Positions 8,786 through 20,627 of a DNA stretch of 64,000 nt are shown here, piece after piece. The translations under genes were made by a program, and so were the position numbers. The DNA comes from Pseudomonadota bacterium. GTDB lineage: Bacteria > Myxococcota_A > UBA796 > SXON01. Each line of letters starts with the position of its first letter. The first letter of the stretch is position 1. The stretch covers positions 142,855 through 206,854 of the forward strand of contig JAUXQH010000095.1 of assembly GCA_030685065.1 (NCBI GenBank), given 5' to 3'. The notes beneath the pieces are model-generated. The model worked only from the letters and a program-made list of their open reading frames with translations. It was not told the DNA's origin and did not search any database.

Positions 8786-9448
8786 TCAGTTCACCGTCTC
8801 GTCCCCCGCCTTCTTCCCGGCGACCTTCTCCTCCCGCGACGCCCGGAGCTCCGCCGACGCCTTGCGGAGGTCCTGGGAGATCTCGTCGAGCTTCGCGACG
8901 GTGTCCTCGCTCGCGAGCAGCTCCCGGAGGCGCTCGGGCAGGCCCTCCACCCCGTCGGTGCCCTCCGGGATCAGGCCCTCCTGGCGCAGCGCCTCCGCCA
9001 CGTCCTTCATGCGCTCCTTGGCCACCTCCGGCTCGTGGACCGTCTCTTGCGCCGCCTGGAGGATGCCCGTGAACGTCGCCTTCAGCGCGGCACCGAGGGC
9101 GGCCGGATCGTCCCGCAGCTGCTCGCGGCCGAGCTTCAGGTTGGCCGCCACGCGCTCCTCGCGCGCCTTGACCGCCTCCGGATGGAGCTTGGGCGGCTGG
9201 GTGAGGGCCTTGGCCACGCCCATCGCGGCGGTGCGCACCTTGTCGGCGAAGCCGAGCAGCACGTCCTGCGCGAGCTTCATGGCCTCGGCCTCGGGGACCT
9301 CGAACACGTCGAGCGCGACGGGATCGACCGTGAGCTTCTTGCCGGTCAGCGACCGCACCACGAAGTCGCCGCTCGGGAGGCTCGCATCGTCCGGGACGTA
9401 GAAGAAGCGCTTGCGGTCTTCCGTCGCGTACAGCGTATGCGTGGGCAT
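8786..9448 (-). CDS. hypothetical protein (conserved, Lys/Glu-rich C-terminus)
   Basis: Real start taken as MPTHTLYATEDRKRFFYVPDDASLPSGDFVV..., with GGAGGG 6 nt upstream. The longer track ORF N-terminus is Arg-rich. No family recognised. Confidence 0.6.
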   Translation of the reverse strand: MPTHTLYATEDRKRFFYVPDDASLPSGDFVVRSLTGKKLTVDPVALDVFEVPEAEAMKLAQDVLLGFADKVRTAAMGVAKALTQPPKLHPEAVKAREERVAANLKLGREQLRDDPAALGAALKATFTGILQAAQETVHEPEVAKERMKDVAEALRQEGLIPEGTDGVEGLPERLRELLASEDTVAKLDEISQDLRKASAELRASREEKVAGKKAGDETVN

Positions 9449-9485
9449 GCGAACCCTCCGCGCCGGATGATAACCTCGCGGCACG

Positions 9486-9860
9486 ATGGATCGACCGCCC
9501 TGCGCCGGCCTGTGGATGACCCCGATGGTCCATGTGGACGGTGACCTCACCACGTGCTGCCTGGACGAGCACCTCGTCAACCGCCTCGGCAACGTGCGGG
9601 ACACCCCGCTGGCCGAGCTCTGGAAGGGGCCCACGGTGCACGCCTGGCGCCTCGCCCACGCCGAGGGGCGCTTCGCGGAGAGCGGGCCCTACTGCATGCG
9701 CTGCAACTGGCGGAGCGCGGGCGAGATGCCCCGAGAAGACGTGCTTGCCTGGCTCGACCAGACAGGCGAGAAGAGTCCTGCGGCCCGTCGGCGCGCGCGA
9801 GCTACCCCCGGTCCCGCCGAGAAGGCTACGCCCACCGCCACTCCAACGAAGGTGAAATGA
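9486..9860 (+). CDS. orphan SPASM/twitch-like Cys-rich ORF (remnant or stand-alone C-terminal domain of a radical SAM enzyme)
   Basis: CAGLWMTPMVHVDGDLTTCCLDEHLVNRLGNVRDTPLAELWKG...GPYCMRCNW aligns at ~40% identity, with 6 of 7 Cys conserved, to the C-terminus of rSAM D (18532..19620: CSCFWKSPVIGWDGTVTTCTRDNRFTNALGNVADMPFSTLWWG...LPVCASCF). Its stop overlaps the ABC ATPase start (ATGA 9857-9860). Confidence 0.5.
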   Translation: MDRPPCAGLWMTPMVHVDGDLTTCCLDEHLVNRLGNVRDTPLAELWKGPTVHAWRLAHAEGRFAESGPYCMRCNWRSAGEMPREDVLAWLDQTGEKSPAARRRARATPGPAEKATPTATPTKVK

Positions 9861-10819
9861 CCCCCGCCATCCGCACGGAGAAGCTCGCCAAAGTCTACCG
9901 CTCGGGCTTCTGGCGCATCCCCTACACCGGCCTGGTCGATCTCGATCTCGAGGTGCCCGAGGGCACGAGCTTCGGCTTCATCGGGCCCAACGGCGCCGGT
10001 AAGACGACGGCCATCAAGACCCTGATGTCGCTCCAAAAGGCCACCGGCGGCCGCGCGTGGATCCACGGCATCGAGGTTCCGAACCCCGAATCCCGCCGTC
10101 GCGTGGGGTTCCTGCCGGAGCGGCCCTACTTCTACGAGCACCTCACCGCGCGGGAATTCCTCGACTTCTACGGCCGCCTCTGCGAGGTGCCGTCGGCGGA
10201 GCGCGCTCGTCGCATCGACAAGCTGCTCGAGCGGGTCGACCTCGGCCGGTTCCGCGACGTTCCGCTCGGAAAGTTCTCGAAGGGCATGCTCCAGCGGGCC
10301 GGGCTCGCCCAGGCGCTGATCGCCGAGCCGGACCTGCTCGTGCTGGACGAGCCGATGAGCGGCCTCGACCCGCTCGGGCGCGTGCTCGTGCGGGACCTGA
10401 TCCTGGAGGAGCGCCGCGCCGGCCGCACCGTCTTCTTCTCCAGCCACGTGCTCACCGACGTGGAGGCCCTCTGTGATCGCGTCGCCATCGTGGTCGGCGG
10501 CAAGCTGCGGGGCCAGGGCACCGTGCAGGAGCTGCTCGGAGAGACCGTCGCCCACGTGGACTGCACGTTCGCCGACGTAGCCGAGCGCCCCGGTGGACTC
10601 GAGGATGGAACCCTCGGGGGCCTCGTCGGTGCCCCGGGCGGGCGCGTCACCCACCGCCTCGACGCGGACCAGGTCGATCGCTGGATCGACGCGGCACGCA
10701 AGGCCGGCGGCACCGTCATCAGCGTCATCCCGGCGCAGCGCACCCTCGAGCACGTGCTGCTCGACGAGGTCGAGCGCGCACGCCCCGTGAACACGAAGCA
10801 CCTGGGGGTGCTCGCATGA
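9857..10819 (+). CDS. ABC transporter ATP-binding protein
   Basis: GFIGPNGAGKTT (Walker A), LSKGMLQRAGLAQAL (signature), LLVLDEPMSGLD (Walker B). AAGGTG SD. The upstream part of track ORF 9554..10819 is Arg-rich junk. Confidence 0.9.
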   Translation: MTPAIRTEKLAKVYRSGFWRIPYTGLVDLDLEVPEGTSFGFIGPNGAGKTTAIKTLMSLQKATGGRAWIHGIEVPNPESRRRVGFLPERPYFYEHLTAREFLDFYGRLCEVPSAERARRIDKLLERVDLGRFRDVPLGKFSKGMLQRAGLAQALIAEPDLLVLDEPMSGLDPLGRVLVRDLILEERRAGRTVFFSSHVLTDVEALCDRVAIVVGGKLRGQGTVQELLGETVAHVDCTFADVAERPGGLEDGTLGGLVGAPGGRVTHRLDADQVDRWIDAARKAGGTVISVIPAQRTLEHVLLDEVERARPVNTKHLGVLA

Positions 10820-11583
10820 ACCAGATCCTCGCCGTCGCGACCAACACCTTCCGCGAAGCGGTTCGCGACAAGGTGCTCCACAGCATCCTGTTCTTCGCGG
10901 TGCTGCTCCTCTGCGTGTCGCTCGTGATGCAGGAGATCACCATCGGAGACCAGGCCAAGGTCGTGCGCGGCGTCGCGCTCGGCGGCATCTCGCTCCTCGG
11001 CGGGCTCATCGCGATCTTCCTCGGGGTCGGCCTCGTGTGGAAGGAGATCGACAAGAAGACGATCTACACCCTCGCGAGCAAGCCCCTCGCGCGCTGGCGG
11101 CTCCTGCTCGGAAAGTACCTCGGCCTCTGGTTCACCCTCGCGGCCGAGGTCGGAATCCTCGCGCTGCTGTACACGGTGATCGTCGGGTCGCAGCAAGGGT
11201 TGCCGTCGGCCGACATCTACCTGTCGATCGCGATGCTGATGATGGAGCTGACGCTGCTCTGCGCGTGGGCCACGCTGTTCTCCACGTTCGCGGCGCCCAC
11301 CACCGCCTCGGCCTACTCGCTGTGCATCTACCTGATCGGCCACTTCACGGACGACCTCGCGCTGTTCGGCCAACGCTCGGACGACCCGACGTTCAAGGCC
11401 CTGTGCGAGGTCCTGTACCGGGTGCTCCCCAACCTCGAGCTCTTCAACATCCGCGCCGAGGCCGTGCACGGCATCGCGGTTCCCGGGGCGGAGATCGCGT
11501 GGGCCCTGGCGTACGGCGGCGGCTATACCGCGGTCGTGCTCGTGCTCGCGATGGTCGTGTTCGAGCGTCGCGACTTCGCGTGA
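10816..11583 (+). CDS. ABC-2 family transporter permease
   Basis: 255 aa with six predicted TM segments. ATGA overlap with the ATPase stop at 10816-10819. Confidence 0.8.
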   Translation: MNQILAVATNTFREAVRDKVLHSILFFAVLLLCVSLVMQEITIGDQAKVVRGVALGGISLLGGLIAIFLGVGLVWKEIDKKTIYTLASKPLARWRLLLGKYLGLWFTLAAEVGILALLYTVIVGSQQGLPSADIYLSIAMLMMELTLLCAWATLFSTFAAPTTASAYSLCIYLIGHFTDDLALFGQRSDDPTFKALCEVLYRVLPNLELFNIRAEAVHGIAVPGAEIAWALAYGGGYTAVVLVLAMVVFERRDFA

Positions 11584-11639
11584 GCACGCCGACTTCGCGT
11601 GAACACTCCGGCAGCAGCGCGGGGACTCGCCCGATCCGG

Positions 11640-12704
11640 ATGGCCGACCTCGCCGCCCGCCACGCGCGGGTCGCGGACGACGTCGAGCGGCGCGTCCTCG
11701 CGGTGCTCCGCTCGGGCCGGTACATCGGCGGCCCGGTCGTCACCGAGGCCGAACGTCGCCTCGCGACCCTCTTCGGCTACGCGCACGGCGTGGGCGTCAA
11801 CAGCGGCACCGACGCCCTGATCTACGCGCTGATGGCCATGGGGATCCAGCCGGGCGACGAGGTGATCGTCCCCGCGGTCACCTTCTTCGCCACGGCCGAG
11901 GCCGTCGGCCGCATCGGCGCCATCCCCGTGGTGGCCGACGTGCGGGACGACCTCCCCCTGCTCGACCCCGGCACGCTCCCCCTGACCGCCCGCACGCGCG
12001 CCGTCATCGCCGTCCACCTGTTCGGCGAGCCCTGCCCGCTCCCCGCGCTGCCGGTGCCGGTCCTCGACGATGTGGCCCAGGCGGCCGGCGCGTCGCCACC
12101 GGCGCGCACCGGATCCGTCGGAGCGGCCAGCTTCTACCCCACCAAGACCCTCGGGGCCGCGGGGGACGGCGGCATCGTGCTCGCCGACGATCCCGCCATC
12201 GCCGACGCCGCGCGCAAGCTCGCCTCCCACGGCATGCCCGCCCCCTACGTGCACGACCGCGTGAACGGCCACTTCGGCGCCAACAGCCGCCTCGACGCGA
12301 TGCAGGCCGCGGTCCTGCTCGGGCACCTCGCCGATCTCGACGCGCGCCTGGCCCGCCGCCGCGCCATCGCCGCGGCCTACGACGCCGGCCTCCCGGAGGA
12401 CGTGCGCCCCCTTCCCCGCGGCCCCGGACACCCCGTACACCACTACGTCGTGCGCACCCCCGGTCGCGACGCACTGGCCGCGGCCCTCGCCGCCGCCGAG
12501 ATCGAGACCGCCGTGTACTACCGCCGCCCGCTCTCGTCCGAGCCCGCGCTGGCTGGCGGACACCCCGCGGGCGCCGTCCCCAACGCGGTGCGCTATTGCG
12601 CGGAGGCCCTCGCCTTGCCGGTGCACGAATGCCTGACGGATGGGGACGTCGACCGCGTCCTCGACACGATACGCCGTGCCCATTCCCGCACTCGAGCTGA
12701 ATGA
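11640..12704 (+). CDS. DegT/DnrJ/EryC1/StrS family PLP-dependent aminotransferase
   Basis: ...GVNSGTDALIYALMAMGI.PGDEVIVPAVTFFATAEAV...SFYPTKTLGAAGDGG..., with the catalytic Lys in the FYPTK context. Real start at ATG 11640; the track ORF upstream of it is junk. Confidence 0.85.
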   Translation: MADLAARHARVADDVERRVLAVLRSGRYIGGPVVTEAERRLATLFGYAHGVGVNSGTDALIYALMAMGIQPGDEVIVPAVTFFATAEAVGRIGAIPVVADVRDDLPLLDPGTLPLTARTRAVIAVHLFGEPCPLPALPVPVLDDVAQAAGASPPARTGSVGAASFYPTKTLGAAGDGGIVLADDPAIADAARKLASHGMPAPYVHDRVNGHFGANSRLDAMQAAVLLGHLADLDARLARRRAIAAAYDAGLPEDVRPLPRGPGHPVHHYVVRTPGRDALAAALAAAEIETAVYYRRPLSSEPALAGGHPAGAVPNAVRYCAEALALPVHECLTDGDVDRVLDTIRRAHSRTRAE

Positions 12705-13555
12705 CTGCTGACCTCGCCTACTGGATCTTCGCCGCCTTCGCGGGCGTGTTCGGGCTGCTCTTCGGCTCGTTCCTCAACGTCTGCGTCGCGCGCATGCCAG
12801 AGGACCGCTCGGTGGTGTGGCCCGGCTCGGCCTGCCCCACGTGTGGCACCGCGATCAAGCCCTACGACAACGTGCCCGTGCTCGCGTGGATGTGGCTCGG
12901 CGGCAAGTGCCGGGCCTGCAAGCAGCCGATCTCGGCGCTCTATCCCACGGTCGAGGCGCTCTTCGGCGTGCTCACCTTCCTGCTCTTCCGCCGTGTCATC
13001 CCCGACCTCGCCTACATCGACACCGCCTACCTCGCGGCCTTCGTCTGGTACGGTTGGTTGTTGTTCGCGCTGGTGGCGCTCACCTTCATCGATCTGCGCC
13101 ACTACATCATCCCCGACGAGTTCAGCATCTACTCGGTGCCCGTCGGCGTCGCGGGTGCAGCCTTGCTCGGTTGGCTCGGGTACACCGGCGCCCCCACGTG
13201 GCAGGGTTCCGTGGTGGGGGCATTGGTGGGGGGCGGATTTCTCGCCGCGGTGATCGGCCTGTATTGGCTGGTGCGGCGGCAGGAAGGCATGGGCATGGGG
13301 GACGTGAAGCTCCTCGCCATGCTCGGCGCCTGGTTTGGTCCCGTCGCGATCTTCCCGATCCTGATGATGGCCTCGATCGCGGGCAGCATCGTCGGGGTCA
13401 CCCTGGCGATCAGCCGCCGATCGGGCCTCCAGCTCGCCCTCCCCTTCGGCCCGTTCCTGGCGCTCGCGGCGGCGATCTGGCTCTACGCCGGGCGGGTGCT
13501 GGAGCCGGCCGTGACCCTGCGGGTCGGCGCGTTGCTGGAGCTCTTCGGGAGCTGA
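12701..13555 (+). CDS. prepilin peptidase (A24 family, PilD/GspO type with N-terminal Cys4 zinc-binding motif)
   Basis: CPTCG...CRAC tetracysteine, polytopic membrane protein, catalytic region IIPDEFSIY...GMGMGDVKLLA. ATGA overlap with the aminotransferase stop at 12701-12704. Confidence 0.85.
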   Translation: MTADLAYWIFAAFAGVFGLLFGSFLNVCVARMPEDRSVVWPGSACPTCGTAIKPYDNVPVLAWMWLGGKCRACKQPISALYPTVEALFGVLTFLLFRRVIPDLAYIDTAYLAAFVWYGWLLFALVALTFIDLRHYIIPDEFSIYSVPVGVAGAALLGWLGYTGAPTWQGSVVGALVGGGFLAAVIGLYWLVRRQEGMGMGDVKLLAMLGAWFGPVAIFPILMMASIAGSIVGVTLAISRRSGLQLALPFGPFLALAAAIWLYAGRVLEPAVTLRVGALLELFGS

Positions 13556-13605: not shown

Positions 13606-14058
13606 GTGGAACTGCCCAGCGACAGCCAGCTCTTGCTCTACGTGGTCGCGCTCCTGGCGCTGTGGCTCCTCACGCGCGTCCAACGGAGAGAGGTGGTCCG
13701 GCAGCGGCGGCGCGCGCCGATGTCGCACGACGAGCTCGGACGGGTCCTCTTCGAGATCGCGCGCAACCAGGACCTCCAGGGTTGGCGCGGCGTATTCCTG
13801 GCCGGGGCCGAGGTGCAACAGGTTCTTGGTGACGACGCGCGGGGCTATCTGGACGCGCGAAACACGCCCCGTCTCGCCGCGTCCTTGCGCGCGATCGGGC
13901 TCGCGATCCCGCAGGACGCGACCTACCACGCGCTCCATCTGGACGACGCGGAGGACGCCACGATGGAGGTGCGCCTGCCCGACGGAGGCGTGCGCCCCAT
14001 CCCGGTGGGGAAGGTCGCGCGCGTAGGCGGTGTGTGGCGCATGCACACGCCGGCCTGA
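13606..14058 (+). CDS. hypothetical protein (N-terminal TM anchor)
   Basis: GTG start per the track. Protein-like composition; no family recognised. Confidence 0.45.
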   Translation: MELPSDSQLLLYVVALLALWLLTRVQRREVVRQRRRAPMSHDELGRVLFEIARNQDLQGWRGVFLAGAEVQQVLGDDARGYLDARNTPRLAASLRAIGLAIPQDATYHALHLDDAEDATMEVRLPDGGVRPIPVGKVARVGGVWRMHTPA

Positions 14059-14064
14059 GGTCGG

Positions 14065-14433
14065 ATGGGATACCCCCTTTCGGCCCGAGGCCCCCAAATG
14101 TCCGAACGCCCCGATCGCATCTCCGCCGCGCGCGACTATGTCGCCAAGAAGCCAACCGACCGCTTCGGGCTCTACGCGCTCGCGATGGAGCTTCGCAAGC
14201 TGCGCTCGTGGGAGGAGTGCTTCGTCACCTTCGGGGCCCTCCTCGAACACCACCCCGACTACGGCGCGGGTTGGTACCACTACGCGATGGCAAAGAAGGA
14301 GTCGGGCGACCGCGCGGGGTGCGTCGTGGCCCTGAACAAGGGGCTCGGCGCGTGCGCCCGGAGCGGGGACACCAAGACGCGGGCCGAGCTCCAGGGCGTG
14401 CTCGACGAGCTGGAGATGCTCGACGAGGAGTGA
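14065..14433 (+). CDS. hypothetical small protein (TPR-like helical); alternative start ATG 14098 (MSERPD...)
   Basis: ...FGLYALAMELRKLRSWEECFVTFGALLEHHPDYGAGWYHYAMAKKESGD..., a helical-repeat-like pattern. Confidence 0.5.
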   Translation: MGYPLSARGPQMSERPDRISAARDYVAKKPTDRFGLYALAMELRKLRSWEECFVTFGALLEHHPDYGAGWYHYAMAKKESGDRAGCVVALNKGLGACARSGDTKTRAELQGVLDELEMLDEE

Positions 14434-14480
14434 CCGCGGCGCTCACGGACGCCGGCCCCTGATTCCGCCGACGGCTGGCG

Positions 14481-15206
14481 CTACGGATGCTCCCACGCGG
14501 GGCCTGTGTCGCCGCCCTCGTCGAGCACCCCGTCGGCGATGGCGAACACGGCGAGCTGGGTGTAGAGCGTCGTGAGGATGTCGAGGTTGTCGCAGTGCTG
14601 GGCGCGGAACGTGCCCGCGTATTCGGCGGGCGCGAAGTCGAACGTTCCGGTGAGCACGGTGTCCTTGCGCGCGACGTCGACCCACGCCGGCGCGCCGATG
14701 CCGATCTCGTGCTCCTCCTCGAGCACCTCGATGCCGCCGTCGAGCGCGTAGTCGAGACCCGCCCCCTCGGCGACAGCGGCCTCGACCACCTCGTACCAGG
14801 CCCCCGTCGCAACGCGCCCGTCCGTCTGGACGTACTGCGCCATCGCGGCGGTCTCCCACGCGTCCGCGTGCATAGAGTAGCGGCCGAGCCAGTCCTCCTC
14901 GGGCCCGAGCGCGAGCGAGAAGGCGATGGTGATGCCGCCCTCGCGCGAGAGCATGGTCGCCTGCTGGGCGCTCCAGTAGAGCAGATCGGTGTCGGCGGCC
15001 GGCGTCAGGGGGTCGCCGTCGTCGTCCGCGGGCCAGCACGGGAGCGTGGAGTTGGCGAGCAGGACGAAGGCCTGCCGGGCCCCGTAGAGCTCGAGCCACA
15101 GCGCGCTGTCCGGGAGGAAGTACAGCGCCGTGCGGATGGGCTCCGAGCCGTCCGCGGTGGTGAACGTCCCCATGCTGCTGCAGCCGAGCAGCGCCAGCAT
15201 CAACAT
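14481..15206 (-). CDS. lipoprotein, hypothetical (Trp/acidic-rich), last gene of the rSAM B-A operon
   Basis: Starts MLMLALLGCSSMG (signal peptide plus LLGC lipobox). Its ATG overlaps the rSAM A stop by 1 nt (TGATG at 15204-15208). The N-terminal 200 codons of track ORF 14481..15809 are Arg-rich junk. Confidence 0.7.
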   Translation of the reverse strand: MLMLALLGCSSMGTFTTADGSEPIRTALYFLPDSALWLELYGARQAFVLLANSTLPCWPADDDGDPLTPAADTDLLYWSAQQATMLSREGGITIAFSLALGPEEDWLGRYSMHADAWETAAMAQYVQTDGRVATGAWYEVVEAAVAEGAGLDYALDGGIEVLEEEHEIGIGAPAWVDVARKDTVLTGTFDFAPAEYAGTFRAQHCDNLDILTTLYTQLAVFAIADGVLDEGGDTGPAWEHP

Positions 15207-15970
15207 CAGAAGCTCCCGGGCGGGCGGATGGACGGCGAGAGGATCCCCACCTCGTGGCAGGCGCTCGCGTGCAGCGCGTCCGAACGGGCCTGGTCGCCGC
15301 TGTTGAGGCGGCGGAGGTAGATGGCGTCCGCATCGAACGGGGGCCAATCCGCGGTGAGGTTCCAGCGGCGCCCTCCCTTGGGGGCAACCGCATCGAGCAC
15401 CGCGCCCCAATGCCGGACGAAGTCCGATACCTCGTGGCGGTTCTCGTCCTGCACCACGATGGCGAGGTGGGCCACGGGGCGCTCCGCGCCGAGCGCGCTC
15501 CGGATCGCCAGGAACCGCTCGATGTTGCGGTACACGAGCGCGTGCTTGTCGGAGCCCTTCACCTCCGCGTAGGCCTCGGGGCTGAACGCGTCGATGGAGA
15601 AGTGGATGGCGGTGAAGGTGTCCGGCGCGAGGCCGGGGGTCCGCGCGAGGCGGACGAGCCGCGCGGCCCGCTCGGGGGAGAGGATCACCGCGTTGGTGTG
15701 GACCTTGAAGGTCCGGAACAGCGCGTTTCCGGCGTTCGCGGCAAAGGCGTACTCGACGAACGCATCGAAGCGCGGGTGGAGCGTCGGCTCCCCGAGCCAG
15801 TGGGGGCACAGCGCCACGTCACCCATCCCGCGGAGCCCCTGGAGGGAGCGCCGCCAGGTGTCGAACGACATGAAGCGCTTGGGGCCCCCGTGCGCGTCGT
15901 CCCGCATCGACTGGCTGCACATCTTGCAGCGGATGTTGCAGTGGTCGGTCAGCTCGAGGTTCACGTTCAT
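15206..15970 (-). CDS. radical SAM protein A (no SPASM domain; paralog of D)
   Basis: MNVNLELTDHCNIRCKMCSQ has the CxxxCxxC motif. HWLGEPTLHP / HTNA / FSIDA blocks match D (FWLGEPLVHP / HTNATHL / LSLDAA). The start ATG overlaps the rSAM B stop (ATGA at 15967-15970). Confidence 0.85.
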   Translation of the reverse strand: MNVNLELTDHCNIRCKMCSQSMRDDAHGGPKRFMSFDTWRRSLQGLRGMGDVALCPHWLGEPTLHPRFDAFVEYAFAANAGNALFRTFKVHTNAVILSPERAARLVRLARTPGLAPDTFTAIHFSIDAFSPEAYAEVKGSDKHALVYRNIERFLAIRSALGAERPVAHLAIVVQDENRHEVSDFVRHWGAVLDAVAPKGGRRWNLTADWPPFDADAIYLRRLNSGDQARSDALHASACHEVGILSPSIRPPGSF

Positions 15971-17082
15971 GCGCTTGGACTCGGGGCCACGCGGGGCAGC
16001 CGCGCCCGGATCGCGCGCTCGTGCGTGAGGATGTTCTCGGAGCACTCGACGCAGCGCCCGGTGGGGCGGCCCGCGCGCATGCCGGCGCGGATGTCGAGCA
16101 AGGTGGGATCGGCCTCCCAGACGGTGGCGACGGGCGCGTCGGCCACGGAGCCCCCGGTGCCCGCGAGCACGCAGCAGGGCGAGGTGCGGCCGTCGGACTG
16201 GACCACGAGGTAGTGCCACGCCTTGAGGCAGGGGGCGGCGGCGAGGCCCTCGGCGACCGGGGACGGCCCGGCCGGAACGGCGGCTCCCGTAACGACGGCA
16301 GGCGCGCGGGCGCCGCGGCGCAGGGTGTCGGCGCGGCGGAAGGCGGCGAGCGTGGTGACGACCCCGAGCCGGTCGGCCTCGGCGATGGCCTCCTCGACGC
16401 GTGCAGCCAGGCGCGCCTCCTCCGCGGGACCGAGCGCGAGGGCCCGTTGCTCGGGGCGGTAGGCCACGAGGGCGTCGACGTCGACGCGGTAGCAGCCGAG
16501 CGCGGCCGCTAGCCGCACGACGCCGGCCAGCTCGTCGACGTTGCGGTTCGTGAGGACCATGTGGAGGCCGAGGCGGGGAAGCCCGCCCGTGCCCTGATCG
16601 CGGAGCCGGCGCAGGCGACAGAGGGCCGACACGCTCTTCCTGAACGCGCCGGGGCGCCCGCGCAGCGCGTCGTGCGTGGCGGCCTCGGCGCCGTCGATGG
16701 ACACGTGCACCTCGTCCCAGCCGAGCGCCACGAGGCGATCGGTCACCGCGTCGAGCCGCGTGCCGTTCGTGGTGAGGAACCCCTCCATCCCATGCGCTTT
16801 CACGCGCTCGAGGAGGAGCGGCGTGGCGGCCGAGAGCAGCGGCTCACCGCCCCCGAGGATCGCGACGCGGCGCACGCCCATCGCGGCCGCCTCGTCTACG
16901 ATCGCGAGCTGGCGGGCCACGGAGAGCTCGTTCACCGCGGGGCGGTGGCGGTCGGTGGTGTCGCAGAACGCGCAGTCGAGGTTGCACCGGAGGGTGGGGT
17001 ACAGCTCGAGCGTCCACGGGCCGGGGGTTCCGCCCTGGTCACGCGCCTGGATTCGCGCCGCGATCGCGTCGAGCTCGTCCAT
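15967..17082 (-). CDS. radical SAM/SPASM domain protein B (paralog of E)
   Basis: Start placed at MDELDAIAARIQ..., with a GGTGGGG SD-like run upstream. A longer start at ~17154 would collide with the divergent lipoprotein ATG at 17153. YPTLRCNLDCAFCD is CxxxCxxC; GGGEPLL, TTNGTRL and VSIDGAEAATHDALRG match the same blocks in E. The C-terminal Cys-rich SPASM reads CLKAWHYLVVQSDGRTSPCCVL...CVECSENI. Confidence 0.8.
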   Translation of the reverse strand: MDELDAIAARIQARDQGGTPGPWTLELYPTLRCNLDCAFCDTTDRHRPAVNELSVARQLAIVDEAAAMGVRRVAILGGGEPLLSAATPLLLERVKAHGMEGFLTTNGTRLDAVTDRLVALGWDEVHVSIDGAEAATHDALRGRPGAFRKSVSALCRLRRLRDQGTGGLPRLGLHMVLTNRNVDELAGVVRLAAALGCYRVDVDALVAYRPEQRALALGPAEEARLAARVEEAIAEADRLGVVTTLAAFRRADTLRRGARAPAVVTGAAVPAGPSPVAEGLAAAPCLKAWHYLVVQSDGRTSPCCVLAGTGGSVADAPVATVWEADPTLLDIRAGMRAGRPTGRCVECSENILTHERAIRARLPRVAPSPSA

Positions 17083-17152
17083 CGCCCCACCGTACCACCG
17101 CCCGGACCACCCGGGCGTACCGCCGGCCCCGGTTTGGCGGTAGCATTCGGCC
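17083..17152. promoter_or_regulatory. 70-bp divergent intergenic region shared by the rSAM B-A-lipoprotein operon (-) and the lipoprotein/repeat-protein/rSAM D-E operon (+)
   Basis: Inferred from gene geometry only; I could not recognise a -35/-10 motif at this GC content. Confidence 0.3.
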
Positions 17153-17611
17153 ATGCGCTCCTTCCTGCCCGCCGTTTCCCTGCTGGCCCTCTGCTCCACC
17201 ACGCTCCTCGCCTGCACCGGCGTCCCCTCGACCGACGCGGACGACACCGCGGTCACCACCGGCTTCTGCGCGACGCTCGCGGACGGGGGCCTCACCGAGA
17301 CCGAAGCGGAGGGGGGAAACGGCACGAGCGGCATCCTCAGCCTCAGGGTGCTCACGGACGAGTCGGAGGATCCGCGCGACCCGCTCTATGTGGCGTTCAA
17401 GGCGTACACGCTCGAGAACCTCGAATCCGGGGGCGTGAAGACCCTCGGCAAGACCACGGGCGATGGCCTCGTCGAGGAGCTGCTCGGCGCCGGCAGCTGG
17501 ACCTTCAGCGCCGCCTACACGCGCGGCAGCCTCACCTGCCTCGCGCAGATGGAGGCCCTGGTGGAGCCGAACACCACCACCTACGGCTGCCCCGTCATGG
17601 ACTGCCCGTAG
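17153..17611 (+). CDS. lipoprotein, hypothetical
   Basis: MRSFLPAVSLLALCSTTLLAC is a signal peptide plus lipobox. Acidic/Thr/Gly-rich mature part ending in ...TTYGCPVMDCP. Confidence 0.65.
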   Translation: MRSFLPAVSLLALCSTTLLACTGVPSTDADDTAVTTGFCATLADGGLTETEAEGGNGTSGILSLRVLTDESEDPRDPLYVAFKAYTLENLESGGVKTLGKTTGDGLVEELLGAGSWTFSAAYTRGSLTCLAQMEALVEPNTTTYGCPVMDCP

Positions 17612-17715: not shown

Positions 17716-18459
17716 ATGCGCACCCCCCTCCTCGCCCTCCTCGCAGCCCTCCTCCTCGCCCCCTCCGCGGCCAACGCGGGCCACGGACACCACAGCGGCG
17801 TCTACGTCAGCGCCCCGTCCGTCCGCATCGTCATCGACCCCTGGTCCCCCTCCTACGCCCCCGCCTACCGCTCGGGGTACTCCTGGGTTCCCGGGTTCTG
17901 GAGCCACCACGGCGACTGGCAGCCCGGCCACTGGGTGCCCGTCGTGTCGCGCGCCGGCTACGCCTGGGAGCCCGGCTACTGGAACGGCCGCACCTACGTA
18001 GACGGCTACTGGCGCTCCGCGGCGCGCTCCGGGTACGGCTGGCGCACCGGCTACTACTCCCGGGGCGTCTGGGTCCGGGGTGACTGGAGCTACGGCCGCT
18101 CGTCGCACTCCTCGAGTCACTACTCGGGCCACTACTCGGGCCACAAGTCGGGGTACGGCGAGCGCGCCGAGGACGCCCGGGAGCGCACCGAAGACTACCG
18201 CGAGGCGCGGGAGGATCGCTCGGAGCGCCACGAGGACCGCGAGGAGCGCCGCGAAGACCGCGACGACGACCGCGACGACGACCGCGGTGGCCGGTCGGAA
18301 GGCCGCGGCGAGAGCTCCAGTGGCCGCTCCGAGGGCCGCGGCGAGAGCTCCAGTGGCCGCTCCGAAGGCCGCGGCGAGAGCTCCGAGGGCCGCGGCGAGC
18401 GCTCCGAGGGCCGCGGCGAACGCGGCGAGAGCAGCGGCGGCCGCAGCCGCACTCGGTAG
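17716..18459 (+). CDS. secreted low-complexity repeat protein (W/Y-rich GYxWxPGxW repeats, His-Xaa-Ser-like run, acidic RED block, 4x SGRSEGRGESS tandem repeats)
   Basis: Signal peptide MRTPLLALLAALLLAPSAANA. Repeats YSWVPGFWSHHGDWQPGHWVP / GYAWEPGYWNGRTYVDGYW / GYGWRTGYY. Run SHSSSHYSGHYSGHKSGY. Then REDREERREDRDDDRDDDRGGRSEGRGESSSGRSEGRGESS.... Sits directly upstream of rSAM D on the same strand. Confidence 0.65.
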   Translation: MRTPLLALLAALLLAPSAANAGHGHHSGVYVSAPSVRIVIDPWSPSYAPAYRSGYSWVPGFWSHHGDWQPGHWVPVVSRAGYAWEPGYWNGRTYVDGYWRSAARSGYGWRTGYYSRGVWVRGDWSYGRSSHSSSHYSGHYSGHKSGYGERAEDARERTEDYREAREDRSERHEDREERREDRDDDRDDDRGGRSEGRGESSSGRSEGRGESSSGRSEGRGESSEGRGERSEGRGERGESSGGRSRTR

Positions 18460-18531: not shown

Positions 18532-19620
18532 ATGCTCGTTTTTGTGCGCACCTCCGCCGCGTCGCGGGCCAAGAGCTCCATGCAGGGCAGCTACCTGGTC
18601 CTCGAGACCACGAACACGTGCAGCCTCGCGTGCGTGCATTGCTCGGTGTCCGAGGCGGGCCATCCGCACCACGCGCGCACCGGGTTCCTGCCGCTTCCCA
18701 CCGCCGAGGCCGTGTTCGCCGACCTGCGCGCGGTCGGCGCCCGCTTCGACACGCTGATCCTGTTCTGGTTGGGGGAGCCGCTCGTCCACCCGGCGTTCGG
18801 GCCGATCTACCAGGCCGCGCTCCGCACCGCGGCCGCCGGGGTGTTCGGCAAGCTGGAGCTGCACACCAACGCCACCCACCTCACCGCTGACAAGGTGCGC
18901 GTGGCGCTCAACCTCGCGCCGATCCCGCAGGTGTGGCACCTCTCGCTCGACGCCGCCACGCGCCCCACCTACCGCGCCGTGAAGGGGGCCGATCGCTTCG
19001 ACCTGGTCGAGACGAACGTGCGCGGGTTCCTCGACGCGAAGGCCGCGCGCGGCGCCCGGTGGCCGCGGCCGGTGTTCCAATTCATCGTGTCCGAGAACAA
19101 CGCGGCCGAGGTCGCGCCGTTCCGCTCCCGGTGGGAGGCGGCGTGTCGGTCGCGCGGGCTCCCGGTGCGAACCGCGGCGCAGGTCGTGCCCCCGGGGGAG
19201 GACGCCGTGGTGTTCTTCCGCCAGCTCGATTGCCCGACGCCCGCGGAGCAGGCCCGCCAGAACGCCGTGTTCCGCGACACGATGGCGGGGGCGGGGATCG
19301 CCCTCCCGCGAGAGGACCGCTCGCCCACCACCATCGCGGACCAGAACGTGGCCGTGTGCTCGTGCTTCTGGAAGAGCCCCGTCATCGGGTGGGACGGCAC
19401 GGTGACGACGTGCACGCGCGACAATCGCTTCACCAACGCGCTCGGGAACGTGGCGGACATGCCCTTCTCCACGCTGTGGTGGGGCAGCGAGATGGCGGCG
19501 CGGCGGAGCCGGGTGGCCCGGGTCGACTACAGCGGGCTCCCCGTGTGCGCGTCGTGCTTCATCCCGCGCTCCTCCAACTCGACCGACATCACCCCCGCCG
19601 AGATCGAGGCGCACGGATGA
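18532..19620 (+). CDS. radical SAM/SPASM domain protein D (paralog of A); alternative start ATG 18580 (MQGSYLVLETTNTC...)
   Basis: LETTNTCSLACVHCSV is the CxxxCxxC motif. The C-terminal SPASM reads CSCFW...TTCTRDNRF...LPVCASCF. The stop overlaps the E start (ATGA 19617-19620). Confidence 0.85.
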   Translation: MLVFVRTSAASRAKSSMQGSYLVLETTNTCSLACVHCSVSEAGHPHHARTGFLPLPTAEAVFADLRAVGARFDTLILFWLGEPLVHPAFGPIYQAALRTAAAGVFGKLELHTNATHLTADKVRVALNLAPIPQVWHLSLDAATRPTYRAVKGADRFDLVETNVRGFLDAKAARGARWPRPVFQFIVSENNAAEVAPFRSRWEAACRSRGLPVRTAAQVVPPGEDAVVFFRQLDCPTPAEQARQNAVFRDTMAGAGIALPREDRSPTTIADQNVAVCSCFWKSPVIGWDGTVTTCTRDNRFTNALGNVADMPFSTLWWGSEMAARRSRVARVDYSGLPVCASCFIPRSSNSTDITPAEIEAHG

Positions 19621-20627
19621 GCCGCCTCACGCGCGCCGCGGTGACCGCCGTCCTGGGGCAGGCGCGGCTACGCCCCGCGCTGGACAAGCCGGTGCAGGTG
19701 CACCTCTCCGTCACGGACCGCTGCTTCCTCCCGTGCCTGCACTGTGACATCTGGAAGAACGAGACGGTCGACCTTCCCGAGCAGGTGTGGGCCGACACCA
19801 TCGATGGCCTCGCGCAGTGGCTCGGCCCGGCGGCGATGAACTTCGTGGGCGGCGAGCCGCTCCTCCGCAAGGATCTCGAGCGGCTCATGGCGCGGGCGAC
19901 GCGCCTCGGCTTCACCGTCACGTTCAACACCAACGGTTGGTTGTTGACAGAAAAACGAGCGCACGCGCTCGCGGACGCCGGCGTGAGCATCGCCTACGTG
20001 TCGATCGACGGCGCGACCGCCGCCACGGTCGACCACTCGCGTGGCCGCGCCGGCTCGTGGAAGAAGGCCGTCGAAGCCTGTGACTTGCTGGACAAGGTGC
20101 CGAACCCGCGCGTGGTCGTGACTTGTGTGCTCTCCGGTCACAATGCCAGGGAAATCCCCGAGCTGCTCCGTTGGACCAAGGGCCGCGGCTACGAATTGGT
20201 CGTGCAGCCGCTGTACCAGAACTTCGGCGCCAACGCCCACGATCCCGGCTGGTGGCGCCGATCTCCCCTGTGGCCCACCGATCTGGGCGCGATCGACGCC
20301 GCGATCGACGTGTTGGTCGACGAGCGGCGCAACGAGTCCCAGGTGTGCAACCCGGTCGAGCAGCTCGAGGCGTTCAAGGGGTACTTCCGGAACCCCTCCG
20401 TCTACAACGGCGAGGTGTGCAAGGCCGGCCACTCGGACATCGCGTTCGATCCGATGGGCAACGTGCGCTTGTGCTATTTCCTGGAGCCGGTCGGCAACGT
20501 GGCGGACGGGCGCTCACTCCCCAAGGTGTGGAACGCGGTCGCGACGATGCGGCGGCGGCACGAGGTGAACACGTGCACGCGGTCGTGCAACTTGTTGAAC
20601 TGCAACTTCGATCGGGGCGCCGGCTAG
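19617..20627 (+). CDS. radical SAM/SPASM domain protein E (paralog of B)
   Basis: VHLSVTDRCFLPCLHCDIW is CxxxCxxC. FVGGEPLL, NTNGWLL, VSIDGATAATVDHSRG. The C-terminal Cys cluster reads CKAGHSDIAFDPMGNVRLCYF...CTRSCNLLNCNF. The upstream 228 codons of track ORF 18933..20627 are an off-frame extension. Confidence 0.85.
   Translation: MSRLTRAAVTAVLGQARLRPALDKPVQVHLSVTDRCFLPCLHCDIWKNETVDLPEQVWADTIDGLAQWLGPAAMNFVGGEPLLRKDLERLMARATRLGFTVTFNTNGWLLTEKRAHALADAGVSIAYVSIDGATAATVDHSRGRAGSWKKAVEACDLLDKVPNPRVVVTCVLSGHNAREIPELLRWTKGRGYELVVQPLYQNFGANAHDPGWWRRSPLWPTDLGAIDAAIDVLVDERRNESQVCNPVEQLEAFKGYFRNPSVYNGEVCKAGHSDIAFDPMGNVRLCYFLEPVGNVADGRSLPKVWNAVATMRRRHEVNTCTRSCNLLNCNFDRGAG

Follow-up and report, generated by a model that had tools for sequence, protein, structure and literature searches.

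We describe here a small open reading frame (ORF), hereafter mini, that occupies positions 9486-9860 of a 64,000-nucleotide (nt) stretch of contig JAUXQH010000095.1, the whole of which is called the window, from an assembly placed by GTDB in Myxococcota_A. Its product probably is the detached auxiliary-cluster domain of a naturally split radical SAM (rSAM) enzyme, acting in trans on the core protein that another gene of the window, rSAM A, encodes. Comparative genomics points in this direction, for A and mini taken together are colinear with single-chain homologues, and the two genes are adjacent in some genomes. What appears to be new, and is well supported by the comparative evidence, is a radical SAM twitch enzyme having its auxiliary-cluster domain as a separate and conserved polypeptide. 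The window contains four rSAM genes arranged in two pairs, B-A on the minus strand and D-E on the plus strand (table 1).

The Pfam model of the SPASM domain (PF13186) matches mini from one end to the other (residues 6-74 on positions 1-67 of the 67 in the model, E 1.4e-10, 41.8 bits with a cut-off of 21.5), and Pfam finds no radical SAM core in the protein, as the initial annotation of this ORF had stated. That annotation had also estimated its identity to the C-terminus of rSAM D at about 40%. In a BLASTP search of a database formed by the four local rSAM proteins, mini aligns with residues 276-342 of D with 28 identities over 69 amino acids (aa) (41%, E 3e-12), a similarity that lies far above chance, and with the SPASM region of rSAM B with 34% identity over 59 aa. 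The claim that six of seven cysteines are in register has to be corrected, however: mini has five cysteines (C6, C24, C25, C70 and C73), four of which pair with those of D (C6-C276, C24-C294, C70-C339 and C73-C342), C25 lying opposite T295 of D and C278 of D opposite G8 of mini.

The original description of the ORF as SPASM-like holds for the family of the domain, and can now be narrowed as to its type. Full SPASM domains are defined by the seven-cysteine motif CX9-15GX4C-gap-CX2CX5CX3C-gap-C and by the cut-off of model TIGR04085; the CX5CX3C...C half of this motif is absent from both mini and D, no aligned member of the mini family has a cysteine after C73, and TIGR04085 scores mini at 17.5 bits, under its cut-off of 27. 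The truncated form of SPASM called twitch binds one auxiliary cluster (PMC9012708, PMC6231123), and the four twitch cysteines of BtrN fully ligate a [4Fe-4S] cluster, the first preceding the β-hairpin, the second following it and the other two coming behind helix α2' (PMC6231123). A profile of the mini family compared with all PDB sequences has a sole match, precisely BtrN (4M7S/4M7T, E 1e-5), and in the hidden Markov model (HMM) alignment Cys6, Cys24, Cys70 and Cys73 of mini fall on these four cysteines. Since four ligand positions align and a second cysteine cluster is lacking, mini is a twitch domain having predicted ligands for one cluster only. Its best NCBIfam match is NF033640 (residues 6-76 to model positions 5-72), at 27.2 bits with a cut-off of 170. 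Mini has the β-hairpin plus α-helical fold of SPASM and twitch domains, and its AlphaFold2 model, computed with the family alignment (pLDDT 85.4, pTM 0.77), is disordered only in the last 30 residues or so; the proteins listed beside this model, CteB, PqqE, EpeE, SkfB, ChlB, SuiB and DesII, are all SPASM or twitch enzymes.

Table 1. Features of the window discussed in the text, in order of position.
Feature	Position	Strand	Description or evidence
Divergent gene	8786..9448	-	220 aa; no Pfam or NCBIfam match
Divergent intergenic spacer	9449..9485	.	37 nt; aligned in the window and six relatives
mini	9486..9860	+	124 aa; stand-alone twitch (truncated SPASM) protein
Cys6 codon	9501..9503	+	aligns with BtrN's first twitch Cys
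Cys24-Cys25 codons	9555..9560	+	Cys24, aligned with a BtrN Cys and with C294 of D, is predicted to be the ligand that follows the hairpin
Cys70-x2-Cys73 codons	9693..9704	+	predicted third and fourth ligands, aligned to the CxxC of BtrN and D
ATGA stop/start overlap	9857..9860	+	mini and ABC ATPase gene; from the sequence
ABC ATPase, DrrA/GldA-like	9857..10819	+	Pfam ABC_tran; NCBIfam DrrA subfamily, below cut-off
ABC-2 type permease	10816..11583	+	Pfam ABC2_membrane_2
DegT/DnrJ/EryC1-type aminotransferase	11580..12704	+	pyridoxal phosphate-dependent, nucleotide-sugar type; Pfam DegT, 263 bits; start GTG 11580 or ATG 11640
A24 prepilin-type peptidase	12701..13555	+	Pfam A24_N_bact and Peptidase_A24
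rSAM A	15206..15970	-	254 aa; radical SAM core only; proposed partner of mini
rSAM B	15967..17355	-	radical SAM and SPASM (Pfam); directly upstream of A, 4-nt overlap; relatives keep the order B then A
rSAM D	18532..19620	+	362 aa; Radical_SAM and SPASM (Pfam); fused core-plus-twitch paralogue of A plus mini
rSAM E	19617..20627	+	radical SAM and weak SPASM (Pfam, NCBIfam); directly after D, 4-nt overlap

The reading frame of mini runs for 124 codons from the ATG at 9486 to the TGA at 9858-9860. Since a TAA at 9471-9473 lies in frame on its 5' side, this ATG is the earliest start possible, and it is also the true one, because the RPPCAGLW segment containing Cys6 is conserved in the whole family and lies upstream of Met14, the start chosen by the gene caller (P0001, 111 aa) and ruled out here. 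The folded domain comprises residues 1-94, and the tail that follows (95-124) is poorly conserved and of low confidence. The G+C content at third codon positions (GC3) is 0.84 when the entire ORF is taken and 0.93-1.00 in windows of 90 nt over its core, similarly to the flanking genes, in a window of 71% G+C. Inspection of the sequence confirms the extent of the ORF and the ATGA in which its stop overlaps the start of the ABC ATPase gene, both of which had been annotated before. The possibility that mini is a fusion part of the ATPase, or its frameshifted N-terminus, was considered and ruled out: the ATPase has its own start, preceded by a Shine-Dalgarno-like AAGGTG at 9849-9854, and no such fusion is found among the long matches checked with Pfam.

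In a search of 5.8 billion proteins mini has 132 matches, counted as protein clusters at 90% identity, and the best 120 of them are proteins of 79-163 aa that have SPASM as their sole Pfam domain and are 54-100% identical to mini; the few named ones carry the label "SPASM domain-containing protein [Myxococcota bacterium]". An alignment of 33 relatives (A1) exhibits the conserved motif RPPCAGLWxTPMVxVxGDLTTCCLDE...GN...W...WR...SGPxCxxCNWxSAG, with C24, C25, C70 and C73 invariant and C6 found in all rows in which the called N-terminus extends that far. When genomes were scanned, one per species, relatives with an intact ORF of 80-160 aa were found in 113 of them, all metagenome-assembled genomes (MAGs) that are labelled Myxococcota or Deltaproteobacteria, or else are evidently mislabelled bins; the isolate names of many suggest a lake, river or marine origin. 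For the window paired with eight relatives, mini has a ratio of nonsynonymous to synonymous substitution rates (dN/dS, Nei-Gojobori method, NG86) of 0.09-0.27, to be compared with 0.19-0.26 for the ABC ATPase, 0.15-0.23 for the permease, 0.11-0.32 for the A24 peptidase and 0.20-0.38 for rSAM A. Mini is under purifying selection indistinguishable from that of its neighbour genes.

These results bear directly upon one of the explanations first offered for this ORF, namely that it is the decayed remnant, or pseudogene, of a third D-type rSAM gene left behind by a rearrangement. The absence of a core domain, the low complexity of the C-terminal tail and the closeness of the start to the divergent gene, which the initial annotation put at 37 bp and which the 37-nt spacer bears out, could be taken in its favour. 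Yet checks on substitution rates and on relatives, of the kind that had been suggested, have both turned out against decay, given the low dN/dS and the conservation of an intact ORF in 113 species-level genomes; of the signs expected of a pseudogene, relaxed selection, patchy conservation and a broken frame, mini displays none. Its four invariant cysteines, coding-like GC3 and confidently predicted monomer fold go in the same direction, as does the lack of any radical SAM core fragment directly upstream of mini in the loci that share the gene order of the window (type 1, see below). Moreover, the nearest fused relatives are of A type rather than D type. The remnant explanation is thus effectively refuted.

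Among the four local rSAM proteins A alone lacks an auxiliary domain, having a Pfam match to Radical_SAM and none to SPASM. Its family shares this feature: the best-scoring 120 relatives listed are all of 243-258 aa with Radical_SAM only, so that the loss of the domain is family-wide and stable. The AlphaFold2 model of A (pLDDT 88) shows a barrel of the usual rSAM kind, followed by a short floppy tail that ends in ...GSF. A is indeed a paralogue of D devoid of SPASM, as had been annotated, with 29% identity over 247 aa (E 1e-24) and its residues 5-246 corresponding to residues 24-259 of D. Since residues 6-73 of mini correspond to residues 276-342 of D, A followed by mini is colinear with the whole of D.

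Further evidence for the partnership comes from single-chain proteins joining A-like and mini-like parts, which an exhaustive search by HMM among 1.84 billion representatives retrieved outside the clade of the window. In one of them, P0136 (374 aa), residues 7-249 are 36% identical to A (178 bits) and residues 268-338 are 44% identical to mini (87 bits), whereas the full chain matches D with 121 bits and mini itself matches D with only 49 bits. The same pattern is seen in P0142 (565 aa) and in the fragment P0137. In P0136 and P0142 the N-terminal parts have about 35% identity to A (178-185 bits, with 104-121 bits for the full chains against D) and the C-terminal parts 42-44% identity to mini (77-87 bits), so that the best local match of both proteins is A plus mini, ahead of D. 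As A and mini are the best matches of the same fused proteins, the two halves share one history.

Twitch and core are combined in several other ways among the proteins retrieved. The twitch is N-terminal to an A/D-type core, with no C-terminal twitch, in P0221 and P0192; it is present on both sides of the core in P0127 and P0129, while P0132, P0134 and P0140 are tandem double units. Thirty-nine of the 149 best representatives are no longer than 170 aa, and many of these are clearly complete. One locus (L089), from a metagenomic organism of 27% G+C, has a split pair whose core (248 aa) and twitch (113 aa) genes overlap at an ATGA; here (coordinates 2-792 and 1812-2936) the split pair is found beside its fused paralogue, P0136, which is followed by a GT2 glycosyltransferase. 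The split has therefore arisen independently, or is maintained, outside Myxococcota. Judging from these sequences, the covalent link between core and twitch is dispensable in this enzyme clade. Mini-like twitch domains have also been found joined with B12-binding rSAM domains (P0135, P0139 and P0171) and with CBM11 and GT4 glycosyltransferase domains (P0183); P0124 and P0135 share a C-terminal segment ending in '...GITIYxKAL...MPIIIEL'. Searches of the literature for a stand-alone or split SPASM or twitch protein, or for rSAMs of this kind within polysaccharide loci, have retrieved nothing relevant.

To follow the two genes across genomes, 86 related loci were typed by phmmer with the proteins of the window as queries. 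Seventy of them, belonging like the window to what we call type 1, have the order mini, ABC ATPase, ABC-2 permease, DegT aminotransferase and A24 peptidase, which extends to most loci the link between mini and an ABC-exporter/peptidase operon that had been noted for the window. The mini stop overlaps the ATPase start by 4 nt in 26 of these 70 loci, the overlap being ATGA or GTGA in the clade of the window, and the spacing is between -8 and +9 nt in 37. In 13 other loci, which form a sister clade (type 2), the order is B, A, mini, with the ABC, DegT and A24 genes a few kb downstream; the distance from the stop of A to the start of mini is -1 to +2 nt in 11 of them (e.g. TTCTGATG) and 22 nt in the remaining 2. 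The last three of the 86 loci end at a contig edge. Canonically, the auxiliary domain follows the core on its C-terminal side within the same chain; mini instead has no core and is bounded by a TAA and a TGA, and A and mini are not combined in one ORF in any of the 86 loci. Full flanks are available for 41 loci, and in 26 of these A is found no more than 10 kb from mini. In another case (L021), mini is on contig JACKEV010000007 and the B-A pair on contig JACKEV010000010 of the same assembly, GCA_020632795.1. An arginyl/leucyl-tRNA protein transferase homologue (ATE_N/ATE_C) lies 3 nt upstream of mini on the same strand in L001 (9290-9997), and likewise in some other type-1 loci, so that mini does not head its operon in every case.

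This distribution poses a question: How could one half of an enzyme come to be placed at the head of an exporter operon, while in a sister clade it abuts the other half? In the neighbor-joining tree of concatenated A and mini, rooted on the fused P0136 and P0142, types 1 and 2 are reciprocal sister clades with similar branch lengths. The most parsimonious history would then start, in an ancestor of the Myxococcota clade concerned, with a fused core-plus-twitch chain; a single break in the linker between the two domains would have produced the abutting genes B, A and mini that type 2 has kept, and in type 1 mini would subsequently have been relocated to the head of the ABC-exporter/DegT/A24 operon. 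This is the history we prefer.

The initial annotation had raised, beside decay, two further possibilities, a stand-alone Fe-S mini-protein or a split arrangement acting in trans with A; colinearity, the single-chain homologues, the abutting genes of the sister clade and an A family without the domain support a separate Fe-S protein that works with A. It is conceivable, if unlikely, that mini has become independent of A altogether, namely a small twitch-derived electron carrier or redox sensor serving the ABC/DegT/A24 module or several rSAMs. Its position directly upstream of the ABC ATPase in 70 of the 86 loci would fit such a role, and so would the recurrence of stand-alone twitch proteins in other lineages; besides, intermolecular electron transfer through auxiliary clusters has been documented for PapB (PMC10470005). 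However, no fusion with an ABC domain is found among the high-scoring matches checked with Pfam, the fusion partners being rSAM cores, some with the B12-binding or the GT4/CBM11 domains mentioned above. In the sister clade, mini abuts A and is several kb away from the ABC genes, and the branch lengths and the conserved positions, compared by eye, are similar in the relocated and the adjacent clades. Were mini independent, A would also be left lacking a domain that is present in all of its fused homologues.

A split enzyme formed by A and mini remains in our opinion the probable interpretation, and some points have to be set against it. A lies more than 10 kb from mini in 15 of the 41 fully flanked loci, a point that speaks for an independent protein as well; in the clade of the window mini is tied transcriptionally to the ABC operon rather than to A, and the two facts together mean that mini may have gained another partner. 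The co-occurrence of A and mini over an entire genome was checked directly in one assembly, and the complex of A and mini, together with the binding of a cluster, is deduced from genome comparisons and the model of a monomer.

In the split enzyme, mini would fold into a domain of about 95 residues that binds one [4Fe-4S] cluster via Cys6, Cys24, Cys70 and Cys73, and would dock non-covalently on the partial TIM barrel of A. It would thereby provide A with an auxiliary cluster, which may accept an electron from the substrate radical or else help in positioning the substrate; the auxiliary clusters of BtrN, SuiB and PqqE are thought to take an electron from the substrate radical (PMC9012708). A variant of this scheme is that mini is a shared or exchangeable subunit, docking on several cores (A and also B, D or E) to tune or gate them. 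The presence of four rSAM genes nearby in two pairs would suit it, as would the tandem double-unit fusions known elsewhere and the extra N-terminal twitch that P0127 and P0129 have besides the C-terminal one. But B, D and E each have a SPASM or twitch region of their own, and the common best-match pattern of A and mini with the same fused proteins indicates a one-to-one relationship; we consider a shared subunit very improbable. We regard as speculative, with a rather small chance of being correct, the broader idea of mini as a dissociable and separately regulated subunit that either gates the assembly of the active A holoenzyme via the exporter operon, being translationally coupled to the ABC ATPase, or serves several cores of the locus. 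If gating did occur, radical chemistry would await production of the export machinery. In both cases a radical SAM enzyme would be controlled in a new way, through an Fe-S domain acting in trans.

On the other side of the spacer, the divergent gene is kept only in the closest relatives (L007-L012, L015, L034 and L051) and probably is outside the system. The spacer itself is conserved in six relatives and contains an 11-mer, GATGATAACCT, at 9466-9476, 9 nt upstream of the mini ATG, that is invariant in the window and these relatives, together with a CCCTCC complementary to the divergent gene's Shine-Dalgarno sequence. No Shine-Dalgarno sequence precedes mini, and a scan of 9200-9950 for promoters and terminators found none, consensus sigma-70 promoters included; the 11-mer could be a -10-like element producing a near-leaderless mini mRNA.

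Several additional genes are found around the rSAM pairs. Directly downstream of A, at about 14481-15197 on the minus strand, there is a gene for a lipoprotein of around 238 aa with the lipobox MLMLALLGCSS, the same place being occupied by genes of 215-226 aa in L005 and L087; a 316-aa ORF at 14443-15393 on the same strand, rich in Arg, Gly and Pro, is an artefact of the wrong frame, the lipoprotein gene being the real one at this place. Between A24 and A the window has two small genes, at 13606-14058 and, tetratricopeptide repeat-like, at 14065-14433, instead of the secreted protein of 680-750 aa that many relatives have in this interval (L001 14197-16452, L005 13966-16194 and L087 12623-14671), with matches to HYDIN/VesB-type Ig, MopE copper-binding and FG-GAP domains. 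Two secreted proteins are encoded on the plus strand between the B-A and D-E pairs: a lipoprotein-like one of 152 aa (17153-17611), which is kept between the pairs in many loci, and another of 247 aa (17716-18459) with an N-terminal half rich in His, Tyr and Trp and repeats of RSEGRGESS type. They could be substrates of the rSAM enzymes or accessory factors. The ORF of rSAM B, as mechanically called, has 462 aa from a GTG codon, of which relatives conserve approximately the last 370 (363-372 aa); its true start is therefore probably downstream of 17355, and the first 90 residues or so probably are not translated.

What substrate the enzyme may have is weakly hinted at by the genomic context, which points to sugar, amino-sugar or glycan chemistry. 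Fused homologues adjoin GT2 and GT4 glycosyltransferases and a Wzm/Wzt exporter, the relative P0183 has GT4 and CBM11 domains in its own chain, and the best NCBIfam matches of the DegT protein in the window are PseC, ArnB, LegC and DesI, every one below cut-off. In the type-2 loci L003 and L004 (10459-18359), mini is followed by genes for PilZ, an NAD-dependent epimerase/dehydratase, DegT, a hexapeptide acyltransferase, ABC ATPase, ABC-2 permease, a 219-aa protein, a second DegT and the A24 peptidase, a set that looks like a classic pathway for N-acylated amino-deoxy sugars. The core of A appears to have no specific similarity to that of BtrN. Given the glycan context and the nucleotide-sugar-like DegT, a reasonable but unproven guess by analogy is that an alcohol is oxidized in the style of BtrN, then transaminated by DegT and exported by the ABC-2 transporter; with low confidence, the A-mini holoenzyme would thus act on a sugar-like or glycan substrate.

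SPASM or twitch extensions occur in about 165,000 radical SAM enzymes, and what their auxiliary clusters do is still mostly unsettled (PMC9012708, PMC10470005). An auxiliary-cluster domain existing as a separate, well-folded chain of about 100 aa would demonstrate that no covalent link with the core is needed, and would allow the auxiliary cluster to be expressed, isotopically labelled and mutated apart from the SAM cluster, whereas to handle it separately in BtrN special tricks are currently needed (PMC10337720). For annotation, a split enzyme would account for the existence of an entire family of 'truncated' rSAMs of 250 aa and of 'orphan' SPASM proteins, which should be read as pairs. Attention is also drawn to a conserved set of four rSAMs, an aminotransferase and an ABC exporter in uncultured aquatic Myxococcota, which is probably involved in the production of an aminated glycoconjugate.

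Among known systems, BtrN, the 2-deoxy-scyllo-inosamine dehydrogenase of butirosin biosynthesis (PDB 4M7T/4M7S), is close to mini in having ligands for one cluster with similar spacing, C-x17/18-C-x~44-C-x2-C. The pathway of 2-deoxystreptamine biosynthesis to which BtrN belongs also uses an aminotransferase of the DegT family. In BtrN, however, core and twitch belong to one chain, with the twitch on its C-terminal side, while mini is a separate gene product; moreover, the core of A does not appear specifically BtrN-like and nothing indicates an aminocyclitol substrate for A plus mini. The SPASM domains of anSME, PqqE, CteB and SuiB (PF13186/TIGR04085) have in common with mini the Pfam SPASM model over its entire length, yet full domains of this kind possess seven cysteines and two clusters and are fused to their core, whereas mini is unfused and lacks the CX5CX3C...C half. 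The NF033640 family, 'N_Twi_rSAM', has its twitch at the N-terminus and demonstrates that a twitch need not follow the core, but mini has no core at all. A module that may be either part of a chain or the product of a separate, co-conserved gene has parallels elsewhere: the recognition element of RiPPs (peptides made on the ribosome and modified after translation) is free as PqqD and fused in other maturases, and F0 synthase exists as separate CofG and CofH or as the fused FbiC. The logic is the same, with a difference in what is separated, for the RiPP element is a peptide-binding domain and F0 synthase consists of two complete rSAM cores, whereas mini would be an auxiliary Fe-S domain that belongs to the architecture of the active site.

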